64,000 bases of DNA. It comes from Candidatus Daviesbacteria bacterium RIFCSPHIGHO2_12_FULL_37_16. Lineage in GTDB: Bacteria > Patescibacteriota > Microgenomatia > Daviesbacterales > UBA10151. Below the pieces are notes generated by a model. That model was not told the origin of the DNA. It ran no database searches and worked only from the letters and a program-made list of their open reading frames with translations. Made by a program: the position numbers and the translations under genes. The stretch lies in NCBI GenBank assembly GCA_001776785.1, contig MFDF01000006.1, forward strand, positions 16,769 through 80,768, in the 5' to 3' direction. Shown in pieces: positions 9,055-60,555 of this stretch. The stretch's first letter is position 1, and every line of letters starts with the position of its first letter.

Positions 9055-9106
9055 TGTCATTCTGAGTGAAACGAAGAATATATCCTTCACATAGTTCGGG
9101 ATGACA
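9055..9106. repeat. Palindromic repeat element, copy A (TGTCATTC...GGGATGACA termini), in the purP2-purB intergenic region
   Basis: Terminal inverted motifs TGTCAT / ATGACA. Belongs with the copies at 17682, 31306, 57318 and 60495. Confidence 0.5.
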
Positions 9107-9120
9107 AGAAACACAATATT

Positions 9121-10509
9121 ATGAATGATTTTAAAACTTACCAATCCCCTTTTTCCTGGAGATATGGATCAAAAGAGATGAGAGAAATTTTTAGTGATGA
9201 AAATAAGTTTTTAACCTGGAGAAAGATTTGGGTTTCTTTGGCAAAAGCCCAATATGAGGCGGGATTAATTACAAAACAAGAACTTAATGATTTGGAAAAG
9301 AATCAAAAAAATTTAGATATTGAAAGAATATTAGAAATAGAAAAAGAAACCAATCATGATGTAGTTTCAGCAATTAGAGAATTTGCAGAAAAAGCAAAAA
9401 TTGGTGGTAAAAAAATTCATCTTGGTGCAACCAGCCAGGATATTGGTGACAATGCAGAGATTTTAAGAGACAAACAAGCTCTAGAGCTGGTAAGAGAGAA
9501 ATTAGTTCAGGTGATCAAAATATTTGGAGAAAAAATAGAAAAATACTCAGAACTTTCATGTATGGGCTATACCCACCTTCAGCCTGCAGAACCAACAACT
9601 TTAGGATACAGGTTTGCTTTTTATGCCCAGGATCTTTTGATAGATTTAGATTTCTTGGATTACATTTGCAAAACAATCAAAGGTAAGGGTTTAAAAGGGG
9701 CAGTTGGGACAGGAGCAAGTTATACAAGCTTACTTTATGGCAAAAAAACTTCAGCTGACCAATTAGAAAAAAGATTTTTAGCACTTTTAGATTTAGAGGC
9801 AGTAGAAATATCCAGTCAGGTTTATCCCAGAAAATTTGATTATTTAATTTTGACAGTTTTAAATTCTATCTCCTCGTCTCTTGCAAAGTTTGCTTTTGAT
9901 TTAAGAATTATGCAGTCCCCTGGGTTTGGGGAATGGCAGGAACCATTTTCTAAAAACCAGGTAGGGTCTTCTGCTATGCCGTTTAAGAAAAACCCATTAA
10001 ACTCAGAAAAGATTTGTTCCCTGGCAAGATATATTAATAATTTACCTCCAGTATTAGCAGAAAATGCCTCCAATTCCCTACTTGAGAGGACCTTAGATGA
10101 TTCTGCCAATAAGAGAGTTATTTTACCTGAGGCTTTTTTAGTTGCAGATGAAATATTAAAAACTTCCCAAAAAATAATTTTAGGAATATTAATAAATGAA
10201 AAAAAGATTAAATCTAATTTAGATCTTTATGCCCCATTTTCTGCTGTTGAATCAGTAATTATAGAAGCTGTAAAAAAAGGAGCTGACAGACAAGAGGTAC
10301 ATGAACACTTAAGAGAGCTTTCTATGAAATCATGGGGGAGGATACAAGATGGAGAAATTAATCCAATGATAGAAATGCTATTAAAGGATGCATATTTACT
10401 GAGGTACTTAAAATCAAGTGAGATTGAAAATTTACTTGATGTAAGAGGACACATTGGAGATGCACCTAAAAGAGCATTAAGGCTTGTTAAAATAATAAGA
10501 AAGTTGTAA
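9121..10509 (+). CDS. purB: Adenylosuccinate lyase
   Basis: Lyase_1/fumarase-fold motifs (GSSAMPFKKNP). Length and N-terminus are typical of PurB. Confidence 0.85.
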   Translation: MNDFKTYQSPFSWRYGSKEMREIFSDENKFLTWRKIWVSLAKAQYEAGLITKQELNDLEKNQKNLDIERILEIEKETNHDVVSAIREFAEKAKIGGKKIHLGATSQDIGDNAEILRDKQALELVREKLVQVIKIFGEKIEKYSELSCMGYTHLQPAEPTTLGYRFAFYAQDLLIDLDFLDYICKTIKGKGLKGAVGTGASYTSLLYGKKTSADQLEKRFLALLDLEAVEISSQVYPRKFDYLILTVLNSISSSLAKFAFDLRIMQSPGFGEWQEPFSKNQVGSSAMPFKKNPLNSEKICSLARYINNLPPVLAENASNSLLERTLDDSANKRVILPEAFLVADEILKTSQKIILGILINEKKIKSNLDLYAPFSAVESVIIEAVKKGADRQEVHEHLRELSMKSWGRIQDGEINPMIEMLLKDAYLLRYLKSSEIENLLDVRGHIGDAPKRALRLVKIIRKL

Positions 10510-10518
10510 AAAATCTTA

Positions 10519-11052
10519 ATGAGTAAAAGTTTAGTTGGGATAATAATGGGGTCTGATTCTGATTTACCTGTTATGGCAGATGCTTGTAAGGTTTTAGAAG
10601 AGTTTAACATTCCATTTGAAATAAAAGTTCTATCAGCGCATAGGGCACCTGATTTAGTTACAGAATATGCAAAAGGTGCAAATTTAAAAGGGCTAAAGGT
10701 AATTATTGCAGCAGCTGGAGGGGCTGCCCATCTGGCAGGGGTTGCTGCAGCCCACTGCCCTTTGCCAGTAATTGGTGTTCCAATTAAGGGGAAAACTTTG
10801 GATGGGCTTGATTCACTGCTTTCTATTGTCCAAATGCCACCCGGAATTCCAGTTGCGACAGTTTCTATAGATGGAGCAAGAAATGCAGGAATTTTAGCTA
10901 TTGAAATATTAGCAGTTAGTGATAAAAGTTTAATTAAAAAGTTATTAGAATTTAAAAAGAATTTAAAAGAACAAATAATTTTAAAAAATGATAAATTAAA
11001 AAAAATAGGCTATAAGAAATTCCTGGAAGAAAAAGAAAAGGCCAATGGTTAG
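10519..11052 (+). CDS. purE: N5-carboxyaminoimidazole ribonucleotide mutase (AIR carboxylase catalytic subunit)
   Basis: VGIIMGSDSDLPVM...SAHR motifs. Confidence 0.85.
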   Translation: MSKSLVGIIMGSDSDLPVMADACKVLEEFNIPFEIKVLSAHRAPDLVTEYAKGANLKGLKVIIAAAGGAAHLAGVAAAHCPLPVIGVPIKGKTLDGLDSLLSIVQMPPGIPVATVSIDGARNAGILAIEILAVSDKSLIKKLLEFKKNLKEQIILKNDKLKKIGYKKFLEEKEKANG

Positions 11053-12028
11053 TAAAAATAAAATTTTAAAAGCTATCCCTAATATTTTAAAAACAGTTAA
11101 TATCCCAAACCTGGGAGAAAAACACCAGGGTAAAGTAAGGGATTATTATGTATTGGCTGATGAGCAAAGCTCGCGCTTGCGCACTAAAAGAATAATTATT
11201 ACAACAGACAGGCAGTCTGCTTTTGATCGGGTTTTAGGACATATCCCCTATAAAGGAGCTGTCTTAAATTTATTGTCTGCTTTTTGGTTTGATAAGACAA
11301 AAGATATTATAGATAACCACTGGGTCTGCAACCTCTATTATAATGTAATAGTTGTCAAAAATTGTCAGATCATCCCAATTGAAATGGTCGTCAGAGGCTA
11401 TATTACAGGAGTTACAGATACTTCCATCTGGGGATCTTATGAAAAAGGTGAGCGGGTTATTTATGGAATTAAATTTCCTGACGGGCTTAAGAAAAACCAG
11501 AAACTCCCCTCCCCTGTTATTACTCCAACTACAAAAGCAGAGAGCGGCCATGATGAAAGATTAACAGAAAAAGAAATTTTAGAAAAAAAGATAGTTTCAA
11601 AAAAACTTTGGACACAAATGAAAAAAGCTGCAGTGGAGCTTTTTGAAAGAGGCAGTAAAATTTGTGACAGGGCTGGAATAATACTTGCAGATACTAAATA
11701 TGAGTTTGGACTTTTCAATGGAAAACTAATGCTTATTGATGAAGTCCATACACCTGATTCTTCAAGATTTTGGGTTAAGAAAAGTTACAAAGACAGGTTA
11801 AAAAAAGGATTAGAGCCTGAAAGTTATGATAAAGAAATTTTAAGGATCTGGTTTAAAGAAAAAGGATATAGTGGGGAGGGAAAACCTCCAAAAATGCCTG
11901 ATGATTTTTTAGTTAAAATGAGCCAAAGGTACATTGGGATCTATGAAAAAATTACAGGGAAGAAATTTAAAACATTTGATTACCCAATAGAAAAAAGGAT
12001 CAGAGATAGTTTAAAAAAAATTGGATGA
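11045..12028 (+). CDS. purC: SAICAR synthetase
   Basis: GKVRDxY...TDRxSAFD motifs of the long-form PurC. Confidence 0.8.
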   Translation: MVSKNKILKAIPNILKTVNIPNLGEKHQGKVRDYYVLADEQSSRLRTKRIIITTDRQSAFDRVLGHIPYKGAVLNLLSAFWFDKTKDIIDNHWVCNLYYNVIVVKNCQIIPIEMVVRGYITGVTDTSIWGSYEKGERVIYGIKFPDGLKKNQKLPSPVITPTTKAESGHDERLTEKEILEKKIVSKKLWTQMKKAAVELFERGSKICDRAGIILADTKYEFGLFNGKLMLIDEVHTPDSSRFWVKKSYKDRLKKGLEPESYDKEILRIWFKEKGYSGEGKPPKMPDDFLVKMSQRYIGIYEKITGKKFKTFDYPIEKRIRDSLKKIG

Positions 12029-15128: not shown

Positions 15129-15733
15129 TACTGCTGATTATACTGGTTTTGGGCTTTTTCTACACCTTTTTCTAAAATTGTTTCCAGTGCTTTAACCCCT
15201 TTTTTAATTAAAGCTTTTGCTTTTGATTTTTCATTTGGCAAAAAATCTTCTGTAACAAAGTGCTCTGCATTAAATGCTCTATGCTTGTGTTCCCCTGATT
15301 GGGATTTTAAATTTCCAATTCCAAGCCTTACCCTGACAAAATTTTCACTGCCCAGGTGGGTTATTATAGACTCTATACCATGATGTCCTGCATCTGAACC
15401 CCCTACCCTGATTTTTAAATGTCCTAAAACAATATCCAACTCATCATGGATAATAATAATATCTTCTGGTTTTATTTTGTAAAATTTTGCTAATGTGGCA
15501 ACGCAAAGGCCTGACTGGTTCATAAAAGTTTGGGGACGAGCAAGAATAATTGTTAATTGTTTATTGTTAATTGTTAATTGAGTCTTTATCACTTCTGCTT
15601 TAAATTTATTATCTAGGACCCACTCCCCAAGTTCTTTTTTTCTTTTAAACTCATCCAAAACATCAAAGCCTAAATTATGCCTGGTGTTAAGATATTTTTC
15701 CCCTGGGTTTCCAAGACCTACAACTAATTTCAT
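15128..15733 (-). CDS. pth: Peptidyl-tRNA hydrolase
   Basis: MKLVVGLGNPG...RHNLGF canonical bacterial Pth N-terminus. Contains an internal TTAATTG 7-mer tandem run at ~15541-15585 (coding). Confidence 0.9.
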   Translation of the reverse strand: MKLVVGLGNPGEKYLNTRHNLGFDVLDEFKRKKELGEWVLDNKFKAEVIKTQLTINNKQLTIILARPQTFMNQSGLCVATLAKFYKIKPEDIIIIHDELDIVLGHLKIRVGGSDAGHHGIESIITHLGSENFVRVRLGIGNLKSQSGEHKHRAFNAEHFVTEDFLPNEKSKAKALIKKGVKALETILEKGVEKAQNQYNQQ

Positions 15734-15749: not shown

Positions 15750-16136
15750 TTAGTTATCTGAGCTCAGTTTATTTAATCTATAATTTTTTGTTTGCTTTAT
15801 CAAGCCACTTAACATTTTACTAACTTCTTCAATTAAGGAAATTGCTTCATTTAATTGAACTTTATCCATATACTTTTGATCCAAACAAATGTACAAATGG
15901 CTTCTTATTTCTAGTAAAGATCCACGCGCTGTTCTATAAAATTGCATGCTTTCTTGTGAATGATACCTACCAAAACCTTCGGCTATATTGGCACTAACTG
16001 AAACACTAGCCCTTCTTAGTTGACTGGTTAGATTACTTCTTTCACTTGCAGGAAACTTAGAAGTTATCATATAAATCTTTTGATTTAACAATCTAGATTT
16101 CTGCCAAACAATTAAGTCCTCAAAACTTTTTATCAT
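15750..16136 (-). CDS. Four-helix-bundle protein (TIGR02436-like)
   Basis: DLIVWQKS...FPxxE...SQLRRASVSVSANIAEG signature. Confidence 0.7.
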   Translation of the reverse strand: MIKSFEDLIVWQKSRLLNQKIYMITSKFPASERSNLTSQLRRASVSVSANIAEGFGRYHSQESMQFYRTARGSLLEIRSHLYICLDQKYMDKVQLNEAISLIEEVSKMLSGLIKQTKNYRLNKLSSDN

Positions 16137-16167: not shown

Positions 16168-17433
16168 CTAGAATAATCCCATCTGCTCCTCCTCTTTTAA
16201 TTTATCCTCATTTTCATCCCAGATTTTAACTACTCCATAAGTATTATCAAAACCTGGTTTTATAGTTAGTTTTCCTTTCCTAATCCTTTTAACGCCTTCT
16301 GCAATTTTTACTCCTGCATATTTTTCAATTTGTTCAAGTGGAGTTTTAGTTAAGATTTTTAATTCTGTATCTAGTGTTGTAACCAGTCTTTCATATTCAT
16401 TTTTGACTTTTTGGGAGGAGACTGTAGAATTTAGAGCTTCTGCAATTATTTCCTCCAGCTGAACCAGCATTCTGAATCCAGGCTTATCAGGAAATGCTTT
16501 TGATTTAATTACTCCATTTTCATTTGAAATTTGTAATTTGTCATTTGAAATTCCTGCAAGGTCCTCTACTCTTTGCATTACTCCAACTGTTAATTTTCTT
16601 TTACATTTGGGACAAATTACTCCTTTTTCTTTAAGCTCCTCTGGTCCATAAACTACTCCACAATTTCTGTGACCTGAGTAGTGGTATTTTCCCTCTTCCG
16701 GGAAAAATTCTATGGTACCAATGATTTTTCTTTGTTTAACTGACTTAGATAAACCCTCAAATGAACATTCCCCTCCAATTATTGTGGCTTCCCGTCCAAG
16801 CCTTGGCAGGGAGTGGGCATCTGAAAAAGAAAGTATGGCCTTTTCATCTAAGTCTTTTACTCTCCAATTCATGGCAGGTTCAGAAGATAAACCTGTTTCT
16901 ATGCCATAAATTTTGTCAGAAAAATCTCCAAAGCAGTCTGCAAATTTGTCATAGCCTGACTGCGACCCAAATAGAGAAAACCAGGGGGTCCAGATATGGG
17001 CAGGTATTATTAGGGCTTCTGGCTCTACAGAAAAAACTATTTCACACAAAGCTTTAGTGCTCATTCCCATAATTGGCCTGCCATCTGAAACCAGGTTGAT
17101 GCCTTTTTTTGTTAAGACTTCTGATAATTTTGCTGCAGAATCTAAGTTTGGCAGGAAAATTAAAATGTGGATCCTTCTAACTCTTCCTGCCTCTGAATAA
17201 ATACAGGCAACCTCTGTTGTGGGGATAAAAGTTATGCCATTAACCTGATATTTGCCATCAACCAATTTTAAATCTTTTTTTAATTCTGCCTGCCAAAGTG
17301 GGTGAAGACAATCCCCTGTTCCCATTAGACTTATACCTTTATATTTTGCCCATTTAGCTAGATTGGGGATGTTTAGTGCTGATGAACAGGCCCTGGAGAA
17401 TCTGGAGTGGATGTGTAAGTCTGCTACATAAGC
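16168..17433 (-). CDS. PHP-domain nuclease, endonuclease Q-like, with C-terminal zinc ribbon
   Basis: ADLHIHSRFSRA PHP motif and CPKCKRK Zn finger. The track ORF extends to 17616, but the MAYVADLHIHS start at 17433 avoids overlap with tatD. Confidence 0.5.
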   Translation of the reverse strand, partial: AYVADLHIHSRFSRACSSALNIPNLAKWAKYKGISLMGTGDCLHPLWQAELKKDLKLVDGKYQVNGITFIPTTEVACIYSEAGRVRRIHILIFLPNLDSAAKLSEVLTKKGINLVSDGRPIMGMSTKALCEIVFSVEPEALIIPAHIWTPWFSLFGSQSGYDKFADCFGDFSDKIYGIETGLSSEPAMNWRVKDLDEKAILSFSDAHSLPRLGREATIIGGECSFEGLSKSVKQRKIIGTIEFFPEEGKYHYSGHRNCGVVYGPEELKEKGVICPKCKRKLTVGVMQRVEDLAGISNDKLQISNENGVIKSKAFPDKPGFRMLVQLEEIIAEALNSTVSSQKVKNEYERLVTTLDTELKILTKTPLEQIEKYAGVKIAEGVKRIRKGKLTIKPGFDNTYGVVKIWDENEDKLKEEEQMGLF

Positions 17434-17440: not shown

Positions 17441-18325
17441 TTGATTATTGTACAATATGTGCCAATGCTATTTGATACCCATTCACATATCCAGTTTAAA
17501 TCTTTTGATAAAAACAGAAAAAACGTTATTGAGAGGGCAAAAAAAGCTGGGGTTAAGAAAATTATTGCTATAGGGACTGATTTAGAATCTTCTAAAAAAG
17601 CAGCAGAAATTTCCATAGAATATCCTGAAGTTTTTGCATCTGTTGGAATCCATCCCCACCATGTATTTAGCTACCTTTCTCGTCATTCCGAATTTATTTC
17701 GGAATCTTATAAAGAGATCCTGAAACAAGTTCAGGATGACGGGGTTGGTGTTCAGGATGACATTAGACATTTAGAAGACTTATTTAGCAACCCTAAAGTT
17801 GTAGCTGTTGGGGAAACAGGAATGGATAAATACCAATATAAAATTACCAAGTACTCCAATTATTCAGTATCCAAACAATTTATCAAATTACAAAAGGAAA
17901 TATTTAAAATGCAGATTAAGCTGGCAATTATGTATAAAAAAGCTTTAATAATCCACAACAGAGAAGCAGTTGAGGAAACTTTAGAAGTTTTAAAAGAAAG
18001 TTGGGATAAAAAATTAGAAGGAAGAACAGTTTTCCATTATTGTGAACCAGACAAAAGAGTTTTAGATTTTGCAAAATCCCACAAAATTTATATTGGAGTT
18101 GATGGGGATGTTTTAACTGATAAAATAAAACAGGAATTTGTTAAAATAATCCCTCTGGATTTGTTAGTTTTAGAAACAGACTCCCCTTTTCTAAACTCTG
18201 AACCTGCAAAAATAAAAACAATTTTAGAATTTATTTCTAAACTTTTAAAAATTCAACCTAAAGGATTTGAAAAAATATTATTCAATAATAGTTCTTATTT
18301 ATTCAATAACTACTTGCTTAAATAA
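17441..18325 (+). CDS. tatD: TatD-family metal-dependent DNase (with an in-frame repeat-element insertion)
   Basis: FDTHSHIQF, GIHPHH, GETGMD motifs. The likely true start is MLFDTHSH at 17465. A ~30-aa insertion is encoded by palindromic element B. Confidence 0.75.
   Translation: MIIVQYVPMLFDTHSHIQFKSFDKNRKNVIERAKKAGVKKIIAIGTDLESSKKAAEISIEYPEVFASVGIHPHHVFSYLSRHSEFISESYKEILKQVQDDGVGVQDDIRHLEDLFSNPKVVAVGETGMDKYQYKITKYSNYSVSKQFIKLQKEIFKMQIKLAIMYKKALIIHNREAVEETLEVLKESWDKKLEGRTVFHYCEPDKRVLDFAKSHKIYIGVDGDVLTDKIKQEFVKIIPLDLLVLETDSPFLNSEPAKIKTILEFISKLLKIQPKGFEKILFNNSSYLFNNYLLK
17682..17763. repeat. Palindromic repeat element, copy B, in-frame inside tatD
   Basis: GTCATTCCGAATTTATTTCGGAATC hairpin, CCTGAACAAGTTCAGG hairpin, and two CAGGATGAC ends. 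Encodes RHSEFISESYKEILKQVQDDGVGVQDD. Confidence 0.55.
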
Positions 18326-25449: not shown

Positions 25450-26649
25450 TTAGTCCTGTTTGAGATTTTTTTCAATCAAGTCTTTAATCTCTTTTTTAAA
25501 CTTTTCTTTGGAGAATCTTTCTGCATTTTTTTTGAGATCTTCTGATTTATACTTTTTATAGTCAAAGGTTTCTAAAACTTTTATTAGAGAATCTACATCT
25601 GCTTTATCAAAAAACTCACCAGTTTTGCCTTCAATGATAGATTCTAAGTATCCCCCAGCTTTTACAGCTATAACTGGAGTTCCTGCACTTTGGGCCTCTA
25701 CTGAGGTAATACCAAAATCTTCATCTTCAGATGCAACTATTAAAGCTTTACCATTTGCATAAATTTCCGGTAGATCCCCATCACTTATTTCTCCCAAAAA
25801 TTCTACACTTTTTCCAGCAAGTTTTTTTAACCTTTCTAGCTCAGGGCCTGAACCTGCAACTTTTAGAGGTAAGTTTAACTTTACCGCAGCTTCTACAATA
25901 ATTTCTGTCCCCTTCCCTCTAACAAGTCTACCCAGGGAAAGAAAATAATTTTTTCCTTTTTCCTTTTTACTTTGTACTTGTTCCAGCTGAACTGGCGGAT
26001 AAATCACAGTGGAGTCTCTTCTATCAGCGAGCTGTAAGCGAGCTGAGAAGCTCTGCTTATAAAACTTTTTTATATCTACAGGCGGGTATATTACTATAGC
26101 ATCTCTCCTATAGAATTTCTTTATTCGCTCCCTTACATTTTTTGAGTTGGCAACTAAAATATCAGGGCGCTGGGAAGTTTCAAAATCATAAATTCTTAAA
26201 AAGTGGTTTGCTATCTCCCCAGCAATCCTGGTCCACCAATGTTTTTTATAATTAAAAGAGGTTGTGTATCCATACAAATACCTGGGTGGGGTGTGAATGT
26301 AGCTTATGTGAAGAGCTTCTGGTTTTGTAATAACAGCTTTTGAAAAATATGTATTACAGGAGGAAATTACTAAGTCATAATCTTTTAGATCAAAACTTTC
26401 AAAGATTGAGGGTGCAAAAATCCTAAAAGGTGAAATTAATTTTCTACCAAATGGAAAATTTTGCAACCAGGAAGTTTTTATATCCCATTTTTTAACTCTA
26501 CCAGAGTGAGGACCCAATCCATTTAAATCCAAAAAGGCTGTAAAAATTGGAGCCTCTGGATACATTTCATGCAGAGCTTCCAAGACCCTCTCTGCACCAC
26601 CAAACTCTATTAAATAATCATGAACTAATGCTACTTTTAAATTTTGCAT
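25450..26649 (-). CDS. Glycosyltransferase family 4 (GT-B, group 1)
   Basis: N-terminal VHDYLxEFGGAERV and C-terminal EDFGITSVEAQSAGTPVIA motifs. Confidence 0.7.
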   Translation of the reverse strand: MQNLKVALVHDYLIEFGGAERVLEALHEMYPEAPIFTAFLDLNGLGPHSGRVKKWDIKTSWLQNFPFGRKLISPFRIFAPSIFESFDLKDYDLVISSCNTYFSKAVITKPEALHISYIHTPPRYLYGYTTSFNYKKHWWTRIAGEIANHFLRIYDFETSQRPDILVANSKNVRERIKKFYRRDAIVIYPPVDIKKFYKQSFSARLQLADRRDSTVIYPPVQLEQVQSKKEKGKNYFLSLGRLVRGKGTEIIVEAAVKLNLPLKVAGSGPELERLKKLAGKSVEFLGEISDGDLPEIYANGKALIVASEDEDFGITSVEAQSAGTPVIAVKAGGYLESIIEGKTGEFFDKADVDSLIKVLETFDYKKYKSEDLKKNAERFSKEKFKKEIKDLIEKNLKQD

Positions 26650-34761: not shown

Positions 34762-34875
34762 GGGAATTTCTCCACTCCAGTCGAAGAGAATGAATTCTTT
34801 TTTGTTCGAGCGCAGCCGAGAACTACAAAATGTACTTCTCGACTCACTTCGTTCGCTCGAAGAGGAAGTGAGAGG

Positions 34876-35082
34876 TTAAGCTTTTAACTCAGACTGTTTA
34901 ACTATTTCTGAATAGACTCCATTATTTTTAAGTAACTGGGAGTGGGTGCCTTTTTCTACCAGCCTGCCCCTTTCCATGACTATAATCTGGTTTGCCCGCT
35001 GGACTGTTGAGAGCCTGTGGGCAATGACTATTTTAGTAATTGAGCGCTGCTTTGAGATATCCTCCAGGGCTTTTTGAATCAA
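34876..35082 (-). pseudogene. C-terminal remnant of an ABC exporter ATP-binding/permease protein
   Basis: The 68-aa ORF IAHRLSTVQRANQIIVMERGRLVEKGTHSQLL...GVY matches only the last ~70 residues of MsbA-type ABC ATPases (H-loop onward). No Walker A or TM domain lies upstream. Confidence 0.5.
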
Positions 35083-35083
35083 G

Positions 35084-42730: not shown

Positions 42731-42782
42731 GTTTTATGAATTTTCAATTTTTAATTTTAAATTTGAATTCAAATTGTAAATT

Positions 42783-43688
42783 TCAAATTTTAAATTGTAA
42801 AGCCTTTTTTAGTAATCCTGCTATTTGGTCAAAATCTTCAACAACTAGAACACCACTCTCCTTAAGAACCATTCTCTTGTGGTCTGGTTTACCTCTTTCC
42901 CCTTCAATTATTGCACCTGCATGGCCAAATTGCACCTCTGAAGGTAAAGTCATTGTGAACTCACCTGCAATAAATGCTACTATAGGTTTTTTAATCTTTC
43001 CAGCTTTGACCATTTCTGCTACTCTTTCTTCATAAGTTCCACCCAGTTCTCCAAAAATAACAGAAGCTTGAGTATTAGGATCATCTTCAACTGCCATTAA
43101 AAAATCTGCAAAATCTGTGCCTGCAATCCTGTCCCCACCTATTCCTAAAGCATATGAAACACCCAAACCATTATTTCTTAAGTGAAGACCAATTTCACTG
43201 CTCATGCCTCCTGATTTTGAGATAATACAGATATTACCTTCCTTAAAAACCCTGTCAGGGTCTGCCCCACCTATTGAGCCTATTTTTAGTTTTTTTGCAG
43301 GATTTATCAGGCCCACAGAAGAAGGTCCAATAATATTTGCTCCCTTTTCTTGTGCCAGAGCATAAATATATGCAGAATCAGAAGTAGGCACTTTTTCTGT
43401 GAATATCAGCAAAAATTTGATTCCAGCCTCTAAGGCTTCCACAGCTGCAGCTTTTACAAACAGTGGTGGCACATATATTACAGTTGCATCAATCTCACCA
43501 AATTTCTCTGACAATTCTTTTACAGAATTAAAAACAGGCACACCTAAAACATCAGTGCCTCCTTTACCTGGGGTTACTCCTCCAACTACTTTTGTGCCAT
43601 AGCTTAACATGGTTTCCAAAGCCTTTGAGCCCTCTGAACCAGTGATACCTTGGCCAATTAATTTAGGATTATCAGGTAAAATTAACAT
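42783..43688 (-). CDS. Succinyl-CoA synthetase alpha-like / citryl-CoA synthetase small subunit-like (CoA-binding, phosphohistidine)
   Basis: GITGSEG...GTKVVGGVTPGKGG...GHAGAI phospho-His loop. Confidence 0.7.
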   Translation of the reverse strand: MLILPDNPKLIGQGITGSEGSKALETMLSYGTKVVGGVTPGKGGTDVLGVPVFNSVKELSEKFGEIDATVIYVPPLFVKAAAVEALEAGIKFLLIFTEKVPTSDSAYIYALAQEKGANIIGPSSVGLINPAKKLKIGSIGGADPDRVFKEGNICIISKSGGMSSEIGLHLRNNGLGVSYALGIGGDRIAGTDFADFLMAVEDDPNTQASVIFGELGGTYEERVAEMVKAGKIKKPIVAFIAGEFTMTLPSEVQFGHAGAIIEGERGKPDHKRMVLKESGVLVVEDFDQIAGLLKKALQFKI

Positions 43689-43769: not shown

Positions 43770-44924
43770 TTACCCATTTCCTCCTAACTTTTCAGCATAT
43801 TCTTTGGCAAGCTTAACAATTATCTCTGCTGAGGCTGGAATTGAGGTGTCCTCACCATATAAATGCAGATCAAATTCTTTAACTTTTTTAAGCATTTCAA
43901 AAGCTTCATCATCCCTTGGTCCTGCCCTTCTTATGACTATTGGATATTTGGGATTAGGTTCAATTTTTTTCAGGGCATCAATTATGCCAGATAAAGTTTC
44001 ATAGATATCTGTAAAGTTAGCCAGGGCCCCTACTATCCAGAGACCATTTAAATTGGGTTTGTCTAAAACTATTTTAGTTAACTTCTCCACTTTTTCCCTT
44101 GGTGGGTTGCCTGAATATTCTGTAAAGTTTGCAGGCTTGCCACCTGCATTTAAAAGTGCATCCATGGCTGTGATTGAGGCTCCTCCTCCTGAGGCTAAAA
44201 TTGCAATGTCCCCATCAAAGTCAAAGTAAGTTGAGCCTGCAACACCCCTGTAGTCATTTTCATCAATTTTTTTAGCTTCTATCTCATTTTTAGTTGGAGT
44301 GTAGCCTGCAACAGAGCGGGGGGGGTAATCCTTCCAGGCTTCATGCCTGCCAATGGCAGTATCATCTAATTTTATTTTTGCATCCAAAGCTATCCAGCCA
44401 TCTTTGGTTTTTACAAGGGGATTAATTTCTAATAAAAGCATGTCTTGTTCAAAGAAGAGCTTGACCAGCTTATTTACTATTTCAGTTATATCATTTGGGT
44501 GTGCGACCGCACACTTTAGTGATAATGGGTCCACTGGATAAACTTGCACTTCCTTTTCTTCTATTCCTGTTCCCCCAGCTTCTGAGAAGGTTAAAATAGG
44601 AGATCTTGAATCTGTGTCATAGGATAAAGAGAGGTAATATTCTTTCTCAATCTCTACCTTTTCTTCTACCAAAACCTTTTCCACCTTTTCCTTATTAATT
44701 ATTTTTCCCAACAAATTTGAAATTTGAAATTTGAAATTTGAAATTTCGTCGCAGACGACTATTCCTCCAGCATCTGCCCTTTTGCCTGAGAGGACCTGAG
44801 CTTTAAGGACAACAGGATACTGCAGAGCTCTGAGCTCAGAGCTCTGATTGAATAGTTGGGAGGCTGGGACTTTGATGCCTGCATCAGCTAAAAGCTTTTT
44901 TCCTTCAAATTCAAAGAGGATCAT
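43770..44924 (-). CDS. Succinyl-CoA synthetase beta-like / citryl-CoA synthetase large subunit-like (ATP-grasp)
   Basis: N-terminal ATP-grasp and C-terminal GDIAILASGGGASITAMDALLNAGGKPANF ligase-CoA domain. Confidence 0.7.
   Translation of the reverse strand: MILFEFEGKKLLADAGIKVPASQLFNQSSELRALQYPVVLKAQVLSGKRADAGGIVVCDEISNFKFQISNLLGKIINKEKVEKVLVEEKVEIEKEYYLSLSYDTDSRSPILTFSEAGGTGIEEKEVQVYPVDPLSLKCAVAHPNDITEIVNKLVKLFFEQDMLLLEINPLVKTKDGWIALDAKIKLDDTAIGRHEAWKDYPPRSVAGYTPTKNEIEAKKIDENDYRGVAGSTYFDFDGDIAILASGGGASITAMDALLNAGGKPANFTEYSGNPPREKVEKLTKIVLDKPNLNGLWIVGALANFTDIYETLSGIIDALKKIEPNPKYPIVIRRAGPRDDEAFEMLKKVKEFDLHLYGEDTSIPASAEIIVKLAKEYAEKLGGNG
44713..44747. repeat. Perfect heptanucleotide tandem repeat (AAATTTG)x5 inside the sucC-like CDS
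   Basis: Read directly. 35 bp, not a multiple of 3. The same AAATTTG/AAATTTC motif recurs in the AT-rich 42731-42782 intergenic region. Confidence 0.6.
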
Positions 44925-52480: not shown

Positions 52481-52729
52481 TTATAGTTTGTCAAGAAGCC
52501 TCAATTTCTCTTCCCTGCTCCAGGATTTTATCTCTATTTCCCTTTTTAGAGCTTCTGATTTAGTTTTAAAAATTTCTTTATAAATAATTTTTAAGGGCTT
52601 GTGGGATCTGGTGTAGCTGCCGCCTTTTCCATTTTGGTGGCTTAAAAACCTTTTTTCTAAGTTATTAGTTGAGCCTGTATAGAGTGAATTATCTCTGCAA
52701 AGAAGTATATATACAAACCACATTACCAA
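52481..52729 (-). CDS. GIY-YIG domain protein (UPF0213-like small nuclease)
   Basis: FVYILLCRDNSLYTGSTNNLEKR contains the GIY...YIG-type motif. Confidence 0.6.
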   Translation of the reverse strand: MVMWFVYILLCRDNSLYTGSTNNLEKRFLSHQNGKGGSYTRSHKPLKIIYKEIFKTKSEALKREIEIKSWSREEKLRLLDKL

Positions 52730-54396: not shown

Positions 54397-54402
54397 GATT
54401 TG

Positions 54403-56605: not shown

Positions 56606-56616
56606 AGAGATTCTGA

Positions 56617-57006: not shown

Positions 57007-57076
57007 TCTATCGGCTGGTGCGCGGACTATACACCCAATTCCCGTTTCACTCGAATTGCAGGATTTGAATTTAGTG

Positions 57077-57101: not shown

Positions 57102-57111
57102 AACTAATATG

Positions 57112-57182
57112 TAGGCCCGGAAGGAATCGAACCTTCGTCATGACTGTATAAGAATCAGGCATTACCATTATGCAACGGGCCT
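57112..57182 (-). tRNA. tRNA with TAT anticodon (putative tRNA-Ile UAU)
   Basis: Minus strand: acceptor AGGCCCG/CGGGCCT, D-arm GCAT-AATGGTA-ATGC, anticodon stem TGATT/AGTCA with loop CTTATAC, T-arm GAAGG-TTCGATT-CCTTC. Confidence 0.55.
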
Positions 57183-57317
57183 ATCGCGCTAATTGTACCA
57201 AAAAAGTCCACTTTTTTCTCCCTAAGAGTCTGAAATTGCCTTTATAGATAAGTATCAAAATAGTACACCCTAAGGGTGAATTAGCTAGGACACCTAGCCT
57301 TTATATGATTTGTATAG

Positions 57318-57372
57318 ATTCCCGATCCCGTCTTCGCTGCGCTTCGGCAGGGCAAGCAAGTCGGGAATGACA
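57318..57372. repeat. Palindromic repeat element, copy E (…TTCCCGATCCC…CTTCGCTGCGCT…CGGGAATGACA)
   Basis: Shares the 12-mer CTTCGCTGCGCT with copy D and the GAATGACA terminus with the others. Confidence 0.45.
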
Positions 57373-57382
57373 GAGGGTGCGG

Positions 57383-59743
57383 TTATAGTCTGGCGCGGTT
57401 GGAGATTTCGGCTTCTACCATAGTTCTATCCCTGCCATAGGTTAACCTGGAGAGTTCTTTAATTGCCCTTCCTACATCAGGCCTTAACATAGCTTTCCAG
57501 GCTTTCATATCCTTAATAGTTGAAACAGAAAAAGGCGGGACAGGCTCACCTGCAACCTGAGTTTTCATATATACATGAAAGGCTTCAATATTGACTAAAT
57601 CTTTTTCATCAAAGATTGGTTGGAATTCATGCTGCAGGAAGCTAGCATCTGTTACTCCAACCCTAAAGGCTACAACTGACCCTACATTTCCAAAAACTGC
57701 ATTTTTTAAATCTTCCCCTATCTGGCCAATAAACTGATTGGCTACTGTTAAATTTAACCTGTATTTTCTGGCCTCAGATAAAATCTCTGCAAAGGTGTCT
57801 GTGGCGAAATTTTGAAACTCATCAACATAAAGATAAAAATCCCTTCTCTGGTCTACAGGCATATCTGCCCTGGACATGGCAGCAGCCAGTAGTTTTGGCA
57901 CCAAGACTAATCCCAGGAAGTTTGAGTATTCCTCCCCTATCCTTCCTTTAGAGAGGTTAACAATTAAGATCTTTCCTTCATCCATGACTTTTCTTAAGTT
58001 AAATGAAGACTCTGACTGGCCAATAATATTTCTCATCATGATGTTGGTGACAAAGCGGCCAAATTTGGAAACATTGTAGTCTAAGATCTCTGATTTGTGG
58101 AAGTCTGCAGTCTGGGCAATCTGGTCAGTCCAATACCTTCTGACAACAGGGTCACCAACATAGGGCAATAACTCTTTGACAAACTCAGGGTCTGTTAAGA
58201 CTCTAACAACCTCTAAAAATGTTCCGCCGGGACGGGACATAACAGTAAGCATGGCGTTTCTGACATTGTGTTCAAAGCGGGGGCCAATGATACCTGTTTT
58301 ATTTGGATCATAAAGTTTGTACATAAGTCCTATAATTGAGGCCACCACAAAGTGCTTTTGTTCTTCTGAGGTAGCTTCAAGCATGTTCACACCCATAGGC
58401 CTGTCTGTATCTGATGGGTCAAAGTAGATAACATCCTGGGCCCTATTGGGCGGGATAAGCTCCAACATCTCCTCTGCTGCATCACCGTGGGGATCAATAA
58501 AACATAAACCCTTGCCTGCATGGATGTCCTGGATCATTAAGGTTTTTAAAAGCTCTGATTTTCCTGTACCAGTCCTTCCGATAATATACATGTGCCTTCT
58601 TCTGTCATCCTCTGAAATATAGACAGGCCGTTCAACTCCCCTAAAGACAGATTTTCCTATATATAACCCAGAAGTTGGGATCTTTTCAGGAGCAGGTGCA
58701 GACTTGGCTGGCAGCCAGGTGATGTGAGGGGTTTCAATGGCTTTTGATGGAAAATGAAAAACAGAGGCTATCTCATCTGATGTTAAAACTGGCAATCTGT
58801 CAAAGCGTGGTAAGTATCTGTAAATAAAGTCTTTAATAAAACCTTTTTCAGAGCGAGTTTTCATGCCTGAGAAACCATTGTAAGGGCCATTAAACTGCTC
58901 AAATGAGGCCTTAATATTAGACAAATGTGCCCTGGCTGCTTCTTTTGAGGTAGAAGAGGTGACAATCCTGATAACTGCATTAAAGCCTGATTTTTGGATT
59001 TTTCCTTCAACTGCTTCAATTTGTTTTTGGTCGGGGGGGGCTTTAGGTTTTTCTCCATCTCCAGGGTCCCTTTCTTTTTTTATAAACTTTTTACCAGGCT
59101 CTTTCCACTTTCCATCTGCCGGGGCAATGATCATTTGGACTACTGCTCCCTCCCCTGGCTGCATTTTGGCTAAAGCTGATGTTAAACCGGAGAGGGGATC
59201 TGTTGGCAGGTCTTTATAAGTTTTTATTGGGAAGTAATTATTAGCTCTAAGCCCCAGCATGGTGTAGGCTACCTCACCTGTTTCTGAAAAGATGTTATAT
59301 TCAGGGACTTCTTTTATTGAGGCATCAGGGTAGGCTCCATTAATCTGCTTTTCTACCAGATCCTGGAATTTTTTATGACAGGAGACATAAAATCTGATGG
59401 ATTCAGGCAAGGCTACAATTTCAAAGGTGATGTGGGGCTGGGGCCTCAAAAAATCAAGCCAACTAATAAACCCGCCTGAGGTTTTAATAGAGTAAAGGGC
59501 GCTCATTAATTGTTCTGCTGCGTCTATTTTTATCTCATTTCCCCTGGGGATTGTGACCTGGAGGAGGACAAAACCTAATGAGTATTGTTCCCTGTCCCTA
59601 TATTTATACCAGCCTATGATGTGAGGCAAAAAATAATAGATTAGGCCTGCAATGGATAAAATGGCAGTAATAATACCTCCTGCTATTAGAAGCAGGCTGA
59701 AAAAATTAAAATTTTGTGGGGTTTGGGCAAGTTGAGCTTCCAA
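57383..59743 (-). CDS. VirD4/TraG/TraD-like coupling-protein ATPase (T4SS DNA-transfer family, FtsK/HerA superfamily)
   Basis: N-terminal TM helix. Walker A GRTGTGKS, then FIDPHGD, and Walker B LYVDEFQNF. Confidence 0.5.
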   Translation of the reverse strand: MEAQLAQTPQNFNFFSLLLIAGGIITAILSIAGLIYYFLPHIIGWYKYRDREQYSLGFVLLQVTIPRGNEIKIDAAEQLMSALYSIKTSGGFISWLDFLRPQPHITFEIVALPESIRFYVSCHKKFQDLVEKQINGAYPDASIKEVPEYNIFSETGEVAYTMLGLRANNYFPIKTYKDLPTDPLSGLTSALAKMQPGEGAVVQMIIAPADGKWKEPGKKFIKKERDPGDGEKPKAPPDQKQIEAVEGKIQKSGFNAVIRIVTSSTSKEAARAHLSNIKASFEQFNGPYNGFSGMKTRSEKGFIKDFIYRYLPRFDRLPVLTSDEIASVFHFPSKAIETPHITWLPAKSAPAPEKIPTSGLYIGKSVFRGVERPVYISEDDRRRHMYIIGRTGTGKSELLKTLMIQDIHAGKGLCFIDPHGDAAEEMLELIPPNRAQDVIYFDPSDTDRPMGVNMLEATSEEQKHFVVASIIGLMYKLYDPNKTGIIGPRFEHNVRNAMLTVMSRPGGTFLEVVRVLTDPEFVKELLPYVGDPVVRRYWTDQIAQTADFHKSEILDYNVSKFGRFVTNIMMRNIIGQSESSFNLRKVMDEGKILIVNLSKGRIGEEYSNFLGLVLVPKLLAAAMSRADMPVDQRRDFYLYVDEFQNFATDTFAEILSEARKYRLNLTVANQFIGQIGEDLKNAVFGNVGSVVAFRVGVTDASFLQHEFQPIFDEKDLVNIEAFHVYMKTQVAGEPVPPFSVSTIKDMKAWKAMLRPDVGRAIKELSRLTYGRDRTMVEAEISNRARL

Positions 59744-59794
59744 GTTAATTGTCCTTTAGAAGTATTTTACAGTTGCTTTAATCTTAAAGCAATG

Positions 59795-60199
59795 TTAAGC
59801 GGCTTTTTTAGTACTGGTTACTTGTACCTGGCCCTGGATTCCCTGGGCTTTCATTTTTTTATTCATAGCTTCAATTTTTTCATTTAGGGCACTACCTGAT
59901 TTTCCAAAACCTATTTTAGAAACCCAATCCCTCTCAAGCTTTTCCAATACTGGGACATTATCCATAAGTCTGACAGTTTTGTATGGGTCAGGGACCTCAG
60001 GGATTTTTAAATCTGCATTTTTTAAATCATCCGGGGAGATAACTATCTGGTCCGGGAGAGGGTCATTTAAGTCATGTTTTGGGGATTGAACTGCTGAGGA
60101 TAAGGCAGGCTCCAGCGTTGCATCAGCAACATTCTGGGCAATATTTTCTTGGTGGGCTTTTTTCCAAGCATCAAGTTCAATTATTTTTTCTTCGGGCAT
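59795..60199 (-). CDS. Hypothetical protein
   Basis: 134-aa ORF. Confidence 0.3.
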   Translation of the reverse strand: MPEEKIIELDAWKKAHQENIAQNVADATLEPALSSAVQSPKHDLNDPLPDQIVISPDDLKNADLKIPEVPDPYKTVRLMDNVPVLEKLERDWVSKIGFGKSGSALNEKIEAMNKKMKAQGIQGQVQVTSTKKAA

Positions 60200-60209
60200 T
60201 AAATTTATC

Positions 60210-60488
60210 TTACCAGAAAATTAAAACTTTGCCCAATATTTTTGATCTGTCTACTTCACCAAAGTCTTTTGAGTCTAGAGTATTATCCCCTTCCACTTTA
60301 TATTTTTCACTTTCCACTTTAATAATTCTTTTAATAATAAATTTTTTATCTGATTTAAAAATAATTAAGTCATTTACTTTTGGTGGAGAAAAAAGGTAAG
60401 GCAAGAAACTGGCTATGACAAACTGACCAGGGTTTAGGGTGGGAACCATAGAGTGGCCTGAGACTTCAAATTTAGATAGCAATATCAT
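60210..60488 (-). CDS. sodX: NiSOD maturation peptidase SodX (S26/S24 signal-peptidase-like)
   Basis: GHSMVPTL catalytic Ser motif. Immediately downstream of sodN. Confidence 0.6.
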   Translation of the reverse strand: MILLSKFEVSGHSMVPTLNPGQFVIASFLPYLFSPPKVNDLIIFKSDKKFIIKRIIKVESEKYKVEGDNTLDSKDFGEVDRSKILGKVLIFW

Positions 60489-60494
60489 ATAAGC

Positions 60495-60555
60495 TTGTCA
60501 TTCCCGCGGAAGCGGGAATCCAGAACGCTGGATCCCCGATCATGTCGGGGATGAC
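60495..60555. repeat. Palindromic repeat element, copy C, between sodN and sodX
   Basis: TGTCATTCCCGCGGAAGCGGGAATCC ... ATCCCCGATCATGTCGGGGATGACA contains three nested hairpins and terminal TGTCAT/ATGACA. Confidence 0.55.

Follow-up and report, generated by a model that had tools for sequence, protein, structure and literature searches.

Hairpin repeats of probable NTS/SRM type in frame within polA and tatD of a Patescibacteria bacterium

Introduction

Hairpin repeats named NTS, or "Ssn-related motif" (SRM), were described in Neisseria in 2025 (Chenal et al., Nat Commun, PMC11893778). In Neisseria and Wolbachia, their units are bound and cut as single-stranded DNA (ssDNA) by small GIY-YIG nucleases, Ssn (PMC11893778). 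The published NTS consensus is CGTCATTCCCGCGMAVGCGGGAATCYRG, with the head HGTCWY, and in N. meningitidis 2% of the units lie in ORFs (PMC11893778). Patescibacteria are not mentioned in the main text of that paper (PMC11893778). Another repeat of Neisseria, dRS3, is defined without directional flanks and is a phage integration target (PMC11893778). Rickettsia palindromic elements (RPEs; Ogata et al. 2000, 2002) are about 150 bp long and lie in frame in unrelated housekeeping genes of a small, host-dependent genome, where they are tolerated as surface peptides (review PMC10969869).

Here we analysed a stretch of 64,000 nucleotides (the window) from a groundwater bacterium of Candidatus Daviesbacteria (CPR/Patescibacteria), which carries hairpin repeats in frame within essential genes, such as those of DNA polymerase I and TatD.

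The repeat unit and its statistical support

Our analysis showed that the window contains a family of dispersed hairpin repeats, beyond chance. The unit consists of a (T/C)GTC head, an 8-bp stem beginning with AT, a loop of 4–5 nt and a C(C/T)A tail. The AT start of the stem is constant, while its inner part is variable yet self-complementary; some units have a longer, structured loop instead of the short one. The usual arrangement is an inverted doublet of about 60 nt that normally pairs two different stems, an ATT.. unit with an ATC.. unit. The unit also occurs singly, at 34400 and 57317 in the window and in L098 and L090 among the other loci.

In the window, an exact stem of 8 bp or more comes straight after GTCAT six times, whereas 200 shuffles had 0.24 such cases on average and never more than 3. 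The pattern GTCATYC-N20-50-GRATGAC had three matches (0.00 in 100 shuffles), and a broader rule (GTCAT[CGT][CG][CT], a stem of 5 bp or longer and a following C) had nine (0.18 in shuffles). A covariance model, R1, was trained on 31 units from other genomes, with the window sequence left out. It detected five units in the window with E values from 1.7e-9 to 5.4e-5, at 60494–60525 (+), 17679–17711 (+), 60526–60558 (−), 17711–17743 (−) and 34400–34434 (−), the last of which is new. The shuffle enrichments and these independent matches agree with the claim of an earlier sequence-only reading that the copies align beyond chance, and the sequences it reported were present at the positions given. It had also claimed shared inverted termini in at least five copies. 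These were found in the copies labelled A, B and E by the pattern and in the polA copy (C) by its 11-bp terminal inverted repeat, but not in copy D, which has no left GTCAT terminus.

In 1.13 Mb, comprising the window and related loci, 55 units were detected, of which 52 remained after a filter on stem G+C. Nearly all 55 have the 8-bp stem, the 4–5-nt loop and the C(C/T)A tail, features not demanded by the rule that detected them. A covariation count of the stems was circular, since the stems had been chosen for perfect pairing. A second subtype, with the loop GAGYG..CGAAG, is common and includes copy A and the polA copy. In the same 1.13 Mb, 21 of the 52 units (40%) lie within intact frames of at least 120 aa, and their hosts include glycosyltransferases, Mur ligases and TatD. 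The density in the window is low, about 8 units per 64 kb, so recent proliferation is not supported.

Copies within genes

Copy B (17679–17763) is a doublet inside tatD (+), with units at 17679–17711 (+, stem ATTCCGAA) and 17711–17743 (−, stem ATCCTGAA), followed by a further 21 nt that duplicate part of the right arm (17744–17763). The GTCATYC pattern matches it at 17682–17740, R1 gave E = 4.2e-8 and 1.9e-7, and its ssDNA fold has z = −3.5. This copy had been described as an in-frame multiple of three, but 17682–17763 measures 82 nt, with a 59-nt doublet and the partial duplication. It encodes about residues 72–100 of TatD, SRHSEFISESYKEILKQVQDDGVGVQDDI, which map to 17678–17764. The AlphaFold model of TatD has a mean pLDDT of 91.4, with values of 61–71 over residues 71–100 and above 90 elsewhere.

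The corresponding loop measures 34–36 aa in ordinary TatD and 39–89 aa in Microgenomates-type TatD. Across orthologues, the doublets start 9, 10, 19, 21 or 28 nt past the HPHH codons and their stems differ, and one single unit starts 108 nt past these codons. Because offsets and stems differ among orthologues, the TatD insertions appear to be independent. Judging from these alignments, the same loops seem to have been struck repeatedly and independently in different Microgenomates lineages.

Copy C (31300–31395) is a doublet inside polA, a gene on the minus strand. Its units lie at 31306–31351 (+, stem ATTGC, long loop) and 31367–31392 (−, subtype GTCATTGCGAGCGCAGCGAAGCAATC), and its perfect 11-bp inverted termini, GTCATTGCGAG/CTCGCAATGAC, were located at 31306 and 31382 as reported. 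It folds with −25 kcal/mol (z = −5.1), and R1 is marginal only (E = 3.1). Another CPR genome carries, at position 6388 of L031, a unit almost identical to the right arm. Copy C encodes PolA residues 300–331, NVIASAAKQSSLDLEIAASSTTEVGTPRNDRG, which map to 31300–31395. These residues fall in the linker between the 5′-nuclease and polymerase domains, as had been proposed, where pLDDT is below 50 at 288–338; the AlphaFold model has two further segments below 50, at 467–516 and 696–715.

Both extra peptide segments overlap exactly with the repeat DNA. The sequence-only reading would have been contradicted by the same segments in PolA and TatD orthologues; we found them missing there, or replaced by hairpins of another subtype and nucleotide offset. 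Segments in the orthologues include VIPANAGIQ..LDPRLRGDD, VILNEAQRNEGS and CHSGLDPESIAWILKQVQDD. The nearest other PolA proteins are 74–77% identical, and five further contigs are of the same strain. The reading of the in-frame inserts as tolerated loop peptides is thus supported, and the structural models predict that the inserted residues are accommodated as floppy extra loops.

A second palindrome in polA, at 30142–30216, has 14-nt arms around an A7 loop and the heptamer CTGACGA repeated 3.6 times. It encodes PolA residues 693–717, SVVSRQSSDKKNLKTDSEQSERSDS, just before motif C, and a near-identical peptide is patchy among orthologues (P0003, P0009, P0041 and P0099). The region had been listed, as 30150–30225, as a related fragment. 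The palindrome is real (z = −5.2), but its membership in the family is not established, as R1 gave no match and no copy was found in the other loci searched.

The new single unit at 34400–34434 (−), GTCATTCCCAGCCGATAAGCGGGAATCCAG, lies within an MGDG-synthase-like glycosyltransferase gene (33685–34761, +) and encodes ELDSRLSAGNDN. R1 gave E = 5.4e-5 and the fold has z = −2.5. In the alignment, it takes the place of a variable loop and lengthens the protein by only 3 residues net, so this unit is not a clean insertion. Close by, at 34785–34870, another fragment had been assigned to the family. The ABC-transporter remnant next to it is real, but the fold of the fragment itself is no more stable than in shuffles (z = −1.3), and R1 does not match it.

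Intergenic copies

Copy E (60494–60558) is a canonical inverted doublet with units at 60494–60525 (+) and 60526–60558 (−), for which R1 gave E = 1.7e-9 and 4.4e-8. Its left unit is TGTCATTCCCGCGGAAGCGGGAATCCAG, and the GTCATYC pattern matches at 60497–60555. As ssDNA, it folds into three hairpins closed by TGTC/GACA (−20.9 kcal/mol, z = −5.5). It ends 7 nt past the stop codon of a Ni-superoxide dismutase gene (60564–61061, −).

Copy D (57317–57372) had been taken as a palindrome with two ends, but it is one minus-strand unit with an 8-bp stem, ATTCCCGA/TCGGGAAT, and a 35-nt structured loop. R1, built for short loops, gives no match on it, and its fold has z = −2.25. It lies 10 nt past the stop codon of a HerA-like ATPase gene (57383–59743, −) and upstream of tRNA-Ile (57111–57182, −). 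The 12-mer CTTCGCTGCGCT was said to be shared by copies D and E, but its two occurrences are in the polA copy (31372) and copy D (57332).

Copy A (9055–9106) is a degenerate doublet whose left unit, GTCATTCTGAGTGAAACGAAGAAT, belongs to the GAGYG..CGAAG subtype; similar units occur in loci L010 and L031. The GTCATYC pattern matches at 9056–9105. R1 is marginal (E = 3.1 and 4.4), with both arms at the expected places, and the fold is weak (z = −1.4). The copy begins 4 nt past the stop codon of the second purP-like gene (7963–9051, +).

Relation to NTS/SRM hairpins

The window repeats are probably copies of the NTS/SRM hairpin class, tolerated in protein loops as passengers. The left unit of copy E equals the Neisseria NTS consensus except for one loop base. 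Both systems have a (C/T)GTCAT head, a stem of 8 bp (ATTCCCGC/GCGGGAAT, or a version with compensating changes), a 4-nt loop and a CYRG tail. Their units are directional, often form inverted pairs, and occur in many phyla with enrichment in symbionts. BLAST searches with the unit found N. gonorrhoeae (at least 40 places), Legionella, Azospirillum, Sphingopyxis and Manganitrophus; those with the polA arm found Novosphingobium (at least 40 places), Methylosinus and Aulosira. The exact pattern was present on at least 120 IMG/VR contigs, six of which carry GIY-YIG genes directly flanked by units.

There are also differences. Of the window units, only the right unit of copy E fits the published SRM pattern. 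The NTS-ssn-NTS arrangement is absent here, the copy number is far lower, the GAGYG..CGAAG loop subtype is common, and about 40% of the units lie in intact ORFs, against 2% in N. meningitidis. The core of dRS3, ATTCCC-N8-GGGAAT, was found within the left unit of copy E and the unit at 34400, but a role in phage integration is not evident for the window units.

The elements had been thought not previously noted for this kind of genome. In the literature searched, we found no paper on such elements in CPR coding genes, but the class itself was already known as NTS/SRM.

Candidate partner nuclease

The only candidate in the window for a partner that recognises the hairpins is a gene for a small single-domain GIY-YIG nuclease of 80–82 aa (52481–52729, −; Pfam GIY-YIG E = 3e-22). 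It shares a further trait with the NTS/SRM systems, as it is homologous to the unit-flanked Ssn-type proteins, scoring 58 bits against their HMM. Its best solved relatives are UPF0213 proteins, 10 residues separate its two conserved tyrosines, the UPF0213-type spacing, and it is 70–83% identical across Microgenomates. The C-terminal extension KKWxRAWKL..NPxWxDL that the unit-flanked proteins have is missing from it, and in a small tree it fell outside their clade. No units flank GIY-YIG homologues in 38 CPR-type loci (among 80 fetched), no GIY-YIG genes were found in 80 TatD loci, unit-rich ones included, and the window has no Ssn-type (cd10448-like) gene. This UPF0213-like protein is therefore a possible but rather doubtful partner of the units.

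Proposed origin and tolerance

We propose that the units spread via ssDNA hairpins, with the responsible activity acting in trans. With little spare DNA in the genome, only harmless copies would survive, and these would be the ones 4–10 nt past stop codons (A, D and E) or in permissive surface loops (tatD, polA and the glycosyltransferase). Copies in genes would be read through in frame. The GTCAT end of the unit can be read in all three frames without a stop, and the ATGAC end in two (..QDD or ..GMT); the third frame there contains TGA. The encoded peptides would then be passengers and not designed linkers.

Alternative explanations

The repeats could instead be true RPE homologues, or a conventional MITE with its transposase elsewhere. 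We consider this unlikely, although it is the best of the alternatives. Like RPEs (PMC10969869), the copies are palindromic, sit in frame at surface loops of unrelated housekeeping genes and belong to a small host-dependent genome, and the doublets have inverted termini as in MITEs. Moreover, Rickettsia is among the genomes with >300 SRMs (PMC11893778), and RPEs and SRMs may thus overlap. However, the elements measure 52–89 nt against about 150 bp for RPEs (PMC10969869), and the repeating entity is a 30-nt hairpin unit, also found singly, and not a fixed long element. No target-site duplication was evident at the copies, a Pfam scan of about 38 window ORFs found no transposase, and the inserted peptides had no match among NCBIfam models even at E up to 10. 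The host lineage also differs, and here one loop is struck independently by different subtypes in sister lineages. The RPE parallel drawn by the sequence-only reading therefore stands for behaviour, with in-frame insertion and tolerated extra loop peptides of low pLDDT, but the repeats are probably not sequence members of RPE families and are better filed under SRM/NTS; by this analogy, the likeness would be one of behaviour and not of established homology.

Host-selected structural signals, such as mRNA 3′-end stabilisers or terminators and flexible protein linkers, are a somewhat less probable explanation than mobile RPE-like DNA. All three intergenic copies lie 4–10 nt past a stop codon, the folds are stable, and the protein inserts fall in linkers and loops, all of which would suit such signals. 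But no T-run follows the hairpins of A, D and E, and different phyla share the same unit, with its non-pairing GTC head and its C(C/T)A tail. In addition, DNA palindromy is kept whatever the frame, so that one unit gives VIP.., xHS.. or xSF.. peptides, and orthologues fare well without inserts. Established copies may nevertheless have a secondary role in RNA stability.

REP elements are extragenic by definition and have the head GT[AG]G. REP/REPIN-type elements moved by a RAYT, a domesticated IS200/IS605-type tyrosine transposase, are a very improbable source of the window repeats. As in REPINs and BIMEs, hairpin units with a conserved 5′ head, presumably recognised as ssDNA hairpins, form inverted doublets mostly just past genes, and Chenal et al. 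drew this parallel themselves (PMC11893778). However, the head here is (T/C)GTCAT, the Pfam scan of window ORFs revealed neither a RAYT nor a Y1-transposase domain, and translated intragenic copies are frequent, at 40% of the units.

Finally, a similarity due to chance, or to the base composition of G+C-richer patches within an A+T-rich genome, would fit the poor folds of copy A and 34785–34870 and the result of a loose hairpin rule with one mismatch allowed (6 matches, 3.1 expected), but it is virtually precluded by the exact-stem and pattern tests (6 against 0.24, 3 against 0.00 and 9 against 0.18) and by the E values of R1, trained elsewhere (down to 1.7e-9), which rule it out for copies B, C, D and E and the unit at 34400.

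Hairpin units of the repeat family

The dispersed palindromic repeat family is real and was correctly spotted by the sequence-only reading. All five copies claimed there were found at their positions, namely A (9055-9106), B (17679-17763, in tatD), C (31300-31395, in polA), D (57317-57372), and E (60494-60558). The copies could be aligned beyond chance, the pattern GTCATYC-N20-50-GRATGAC giving three matches (A, B, and E) against 0.00 in 100 shuffles. Direct reading of the copies revealed that the repeating entity is smaller than a copy. It consists of GTC, a stem starting with AT, a short loop, and the complementary stem ending in AT, followed by C. Such a unit is about 30 nt long, and two units in inverted orientation make a doublet of about 60 nt. 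The window has six places where GTCAT leads into a perfectly paired stem of 8 bp or more; 200 dinucleotide shuffles averaged 0.24 such places, with 3 at most. When the rule was widened (GTCAT[CGT][CG][CT], a stem of at least 5 bp, and C), nine matches were obtained against 0.18 expected, among them the paired arms of copies B, C, and E, the lone unit of D, and one further unit, newly found, at 34405-34431. This shuffle enrichment covers the 64-kb window. Exact-stem rules were used in place of a rule tolerating one mismatch, which was unspecific (6 matches against 3.1 expected). A generic repeat finder run over the whole window returned A+T-rich noise alone and missed the family, and Rfam at the gathering threshold identified three tRNAs in the window and nothing else.

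Units from outside the window were drawn from two sets of 80 loci each, one centred on GIY-YIG homologues and the other on TatD homologues. Together with those of the window they amounted to 55 units in 1.13 Mb, nearly all of which had exactly 8 paired bases, a loop of 4-5 nt, and a C(C/T)A tail, although the detection rule demanded none of these. We then built a covariance model, R1, on an alignment of 31 non-window units, in which GTCAT was invariant and the T before it at least 90% conserved; the head is present in all window units. Run over the window without filters, R1 matched both arms of E (60494-60525, plus strand, E = 1.7e-9; 60526-60558, minus strand, E = 4.4e-8), both arms of B (17679-17711, plus strand, E = 4.2e-8; 17711-17743, minus strand, E = 1.9e-7), and the unit in a glycosyltransferase gene (34400-34434, minus strand, E = 5.4e-5). 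Marginal matches (E = 3-4) fell exactly at both arms of copy A and at one arm of the polA copy. The number of pairs in the alignment is circular, because the units had been chosen for perfect stems, and hence is not evidence.

Copy A and the polA copy represent a second subtype with the loop GAGYG..CGAAG, whose pattern gave 2 matches against 0.00 expected. The same subtype was found in four fetched loci of the Candidate Phyla Radiation (CPR; L010, L031, L034, and L146) and in one Clostridia locus. It was sought by pattern and not by covariance model, because MAFFT misregistered its stems. Folded as single-stranded DNA, copy E formed three hairpins with a TGTC/GACA closure (z = -5.5); the values were -5.1 for C, -3.5 for B, -2.5 for the unit at 34400, -2.25 for D, and -1.4 for A.

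Several details of the sequence-only reading needed revision. Copy D, taken as a two-ended element, consists of one unit on the minus strand, whose loop measures 35 nt. The 12-mer CTTCGCTGCGCT, assigned to D and E, is instead located in the polA copy (31372) and in D (57332). The stretch 17682-17763, thought to be a multiple of three, has 82 nt and comprises a 59-nt doublet plus a partially duplicated right arm. Two further stretches had been listed as related fragments. At 30150-30225 there is indeed a palindrome (30142-30216, z = -5.2, with a heptamer repeated 3.6 times), but nothing was found that links it to the family: R1 gave no match there, and a search for further copies of it gave none. 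The fragment at 34785-34870 (z = -1.3) is unsupported, while the ABC-transporter gene remnant beside it is real: it lies at 34877-35085 on the minus strand, between the glycosyltransferase and ftsH genes, and encodes about 70 C-terminal residues of the ATPase without the N-terminal part.

In nearly every doublet listed (the window, L034, L092, L098, L103, L104, L121, L123, L127, L190, and L226), the paired units had unlike stems, typically ATT.. with ATC... With unlike stems, a long cross-hairpin would bear strand-specific mismatches, and these may confer polarity on the doublet.

Copies inside genes

The in-gene copies coincide with extra peptide segments, as had been claimed: 31300-31395 encodes PolA residues 300-331 and 17678-17764 encodes TatD residues 72-100; the predicted extra peptides include VIASAAKQSSLDLEIAASSTTEVGTPR and EILKQVQDDGVGVQDDIR. 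In an alignment of 20 PolA sequences, the linker between the 5'-nuclease and polymerase domains varied from 4 residues (P0082) to about 50. Other subtypes of the hairpin class were found in this linker in several orthologues, with the inserts VIPANAGIQ..LDPRLRGDD (P0090), SFSRKRES..GNDD (P0006), and VILNEAQRNEGS (P0086).

The TatD loop after the HPHH motif has 34-36 residues in ordinary TatD, whereas it has 39-89 in Microgenomates-type proteins. GTCAT...ATGAC doublets were present in the loop DNA of six genomes (the window, L086, L089, L092, L119, and L126), and single or tandem units in others. The doublets started 9, 10, 19, 21, or 28 nt past the HPHH codons and the single unit of L098 at 108 nt, and the stems were unlike one another (ATTCCGAA, ATGCCGAA, ATCCCGAA, ATCCCCGT, ATTCTGG, and others). 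Since both offsets and stems differ, these are independent insertions into a permissive loop and not one inherited segment. Orthologous PolA and TatD proteins did not carry the same segments; they had none, or had other subtypes at other nucleotide offsets.

The placing of the extra residues at protein loops was borne out by AlphaFold models, in which pLDDT is low at the inserts and the remaining fold is confident. The TatD model had a mean pLDDT of 91.4, with values of 61-71 only at residues 71-100. In PolA, values below 50 were found at, among other stretches, 288-338, 467-516, and 696-715, and all three extra segments fall there. The unit in the glycosyltransferase gene is placed otherwise: it stands in for a loop that is variable, and the protein gains 3 residues net.

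Other features of these proteins were also observed. PolA residues 505-518 (30739-30780) form a 14-16-residue segment, EGQEEDKRKALGVL, found in this strain only among the 20 orthologues; its DNA holds the hairpin CAAGCGC-AAA-GCGCTTG, and it lies in a low-confidence stretch of the model. The peptide of 30142-30216 (SVVSRQSSDK.NLK.DSEQSERS), located before motif C, is near-identical in a patchy set of orthologues (P0003, P0009, P0041, and P0099) that are 66-77% identical overall, and the remaining orthologues differ at that site. In the product of polA (29962-32292), the 5'-nuclease and polymerase domains are a mere 90 or so residues apart, which leaves no recognisable 3'-5' exonuclease domain. 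Two orthologues of 1153 aa each (P0057 and P0118) contain intein and LAGLIDADG domains. P0002 (707 aa, 99% identical) was considered as an empty-site allele and rejected: every insert is retained, and what it lacks is an unrelated internal piece, residues ~156-220, flanked by KILMPRKTL and KIYIPKNLKTL, which resemble each other. The gap represents a deletion allele or, alternatively, an assembly artefact. Unrelated in-frame low-complexity or palindromic inserts, such as QNSKLKTQNYNLKLKI and ENRKLKVEKNLTSIFYHQHLSSI, were seen in the Microgenomates TatD loop among loci L087-L134.

Placement and read-through

Among the 52 strict units containing G+C, 21 (40%) lay 60 nt or deeper within unbroken frames of 120 aa or more, and frames of this kind hold 83% of the bases. 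This indicates that the units are rarer in genes than under random placement. They are nevertheless intragenic far more often than the hairpin repeats (NTS) of N. meningitidis, for which the proportion is 2% (Chenal et al.). Gene hosts included GT1 and GT2 glycosyltransferases and Mur ligases. The intergenic copies A, D, and E were 4, 10, and 7 nt downstream of stop codons, respectively. All three frames are open across GTCATTCC and two of three across GGATGAC (Q-D-D or G-M-T, both observed in proteins; the third has TGA), which makes read-through easy.

Classification of the family

The NTS of Neisseria, CGTCATTCCCGCGMAVGCGGGAATCYRG, have been generalised to Ssn-related motifs (SRM) with the head HGTCWY, and the hairpin is bound by SsnA, a small GIY-YIG nuclease, which cleaves immediately upstream of it on single-stranded DNA only (Chenal et al. 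2025, PMC11893778). All window units have such a directional 5' head right before the hairpin. The stem of 8 bp, loop of 4-5 nt, and C(C/T)A tail of nearly all of the 55 units compare with the stem of about 8 bp, short loop, and C-Y-R-G type tail of NTS/SRM, and the excess over dinucleotide-preserving shuffles was likewise found here in the 64-kb window. Only one base of the loop separates the left arm of copy E from the NTS consensus. The literal published SRM pattern matched in the window at 60528-60556 (minus strand) alone, against 0.1 expected, and the left arm of E misses it by one position; the pattern proved too rigid here. BLAST with the window units gave matches in Neisseria, Legionella, Azospirillum, Sphingopyxis, Manganitrophus, Novosphingobium, Methylosinus, and a cyanobacterium, and the exact unit pattern was present in at least 120 IMG/VR contigs. 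The published motifs and these cross-phylum matches mean that the element class is already known, and the family is best classified as NTS/SRM-type hairpin doublets.

The likeness to Rickettsia palindromic elements (RPE) proposed by the sequence-only reading was correct as to behaviour. Palindromic elements that sit in frame have already been described in Rickettsia (review PMC10969869), and the fold-compatible in-frame insertion of RPE into ORFs is matched here in the PolA, TatD, and glycosyltransferase alignments. Membership in an RPE family by sequence found no support. The elements are 52-89 nt long whereas RPE have about 150 bp (PMC10969869), and the inserted peptides had no match in an NCBIfam search with E up to 10. 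No literature linking RPE to GIY-YIG proteins was found. Derivation from an insertion sequence, as in MITEs, would agree with the inverted termini; no direct repeats flank copies A, D, and E, and no transposase domain was found in the approximately 38 window ORFs scanned. REP/REPIN hairpins are headed by GT[AG]G and not GTCAT, and none of those ORFs has the Y1-transposase domain of RAYT.

As NTS/SRM-type doublets, the elements are notable for recurrent, frequent in-frame residence in essential CPR genes without a linked ssn gene. The hairpin class itself is published (PMC11893778). Our literature searches for palindromic elements in CPR coding genes found no paper, and the main text of PMC11893778 makes no mention of the elements in CPR or in frame in CPR essential genes.

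The GIY-YIG protein of the window

The ssn genes are mostly flanked by the motifs, which are enriched in symbionts, Rickettsia and Wolbachia among them (PMC11893778). A GIY-YIG gene of the Ssn type (cd10448), typically motif-flanked, was not found within the window. The sole small GIY-YIG ORF (52481-52729, minus strand) encodes a protein 70-83% identical across Microgenomates, whose nearest solved relatives are UPF0213 proteins. No units flank this gene or its homologues in 38 CPR-type loci (of 80 fetched). No NTS-ssn-NTS arrangement was found in the 80 loci, with the exception of the Clostridia locus L077, whose units lie 0.7-4.6 kb away, and the homologues on plasmids of Legionella, Sphingomonas, and Acidiphilium were unflanked. 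No GIY-YIG gene was found in the 80 TatD loci. In an N. gonorrhoeae record examined for Neisseria SsnA, the sole detectable homologue has no NTS or dRS3 within 2.5 kb and is therefore the YhbQ-type paralogue.

Six GIY-YIG genes directly flanked by units were identified in IMG/VR loci and taken as reference. An HMM from four of the unit-flanked proteins scored the window protein at 58 bits, indicating that they are clearly homologous. A C-terminal extension and a GIY-YIG tyrosine spacing of 11 (as SsnA Y6/Y17) are common to the unit-flanked proteins; in the window protein the spacing is 10 and the extension is lacking. It groups with UPF0213-like proteins of CPR and Firmicutes, outside the clade of the six.

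In L077 (3278-6937; Candidatus Faecousia faecigallinarum, 58% G+C), about 16 TGTCATTGCGA...GGCAATCCG units lie 0.7-4.6 kb from a GIY-YIG gene whose product is 50% identical to the window protein and has the N-terminus MWFVYILLCRD in common with it. This keeps alive the idea of a UPF0213-type partner. It is an improbable proposal that such a protein services the Microgenomates hairpins in trans, and that the repeated hits on the same loops would be targeted insertion or replacement of resident hairpins and not mere tolerance. If so, the widespread, uncharacterised UPF0213/YhbQ proteins would gain a biochemical function as hairpin-specific single-strand DNA nucleases, and CPR bacteria, which live by foreign DNA uptake, would police recombination with an Ssn-like system. 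The testable question raised is which enzyme recognises the hairpins without a flanked ssn gene.

Implications for CPR genomes

The placement in NTS/SRM extends this newly described class to CPR, and links it with a puzzle that is 25 years old, the palindromic "selfish DNA" translated within Rickettsia genes, an outcome shared by two very different reduced, host-dependent lineages. It accounts for a good part of the odd and non-conserved stretches of peptide in CPR proteins (VIPA.AGIQ, LRGND, ILKQVQDD, VIASE.KQS, and alike), which inflate proteins and spawn spurious "hypothetical proteins" in metagenome annotation. The covariance model offers a practical mask for CPR marker-gene alignment and phylogeny, for example with polA, and the PolA and TatD loops are identified as tolerant of 20-30 added residues.

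Genomic setting and other repeats

The window has about 36% G+C and is densely coding, with a purine-biosynthesis cluster, ATP-citrate-lyase-like genes, FtsH, PolA, TatD, a XerC/D-like recombinase, and three tRNAs. Its TatD is identical to that named from Candidatus Daviesbacteria bacterium GW2011_GWB1_36_5. Its polA is also present on same-strain groundwater-metagenome contigs, and the PolA relatives are Daviesbacteria/Microgenomates proteins.

Tandem purP-like (DUF1246/DUF1297) paralogues at 6953-7966 and 7963-9051 have 78%-identical stretches in common, and a free-standing gene for a 23S rRNA intervening-sequence protein was found at 15750-16136. A tRNA-Ile with the anticodon UAU is encoded at 57111-57182 (minus strand); reading of AUA by such a tRNA is uncommon in bacteria. 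Nested palindromes with 10-bp stems and 9-nt repeats (GTACCACGGGG, GTATCACGGGG, and TACCCGTGG) occupy 63079-63174, directly upstream of a thioredoxin-reductase-like gene (62104-63033, minus strand). Our analysis also showed heptanucleotide tandem repeats of 4-9 copies (TAATTGT, ATTTGAA, TTTTTCC, TTGTAAC, AATTGTT, AATTTTA, and AAATTTG) at 15547-15580, 16522-16552, 25950-25984, 38761-38791, 42379-42411, 42739-42801, and 44713-44746. They are mostly within ORFs, for example in peptidyl-tRNA hydrolase and ATP-citrate-lyase-like genes, and appear to be a second type of repeat inserted in frame.
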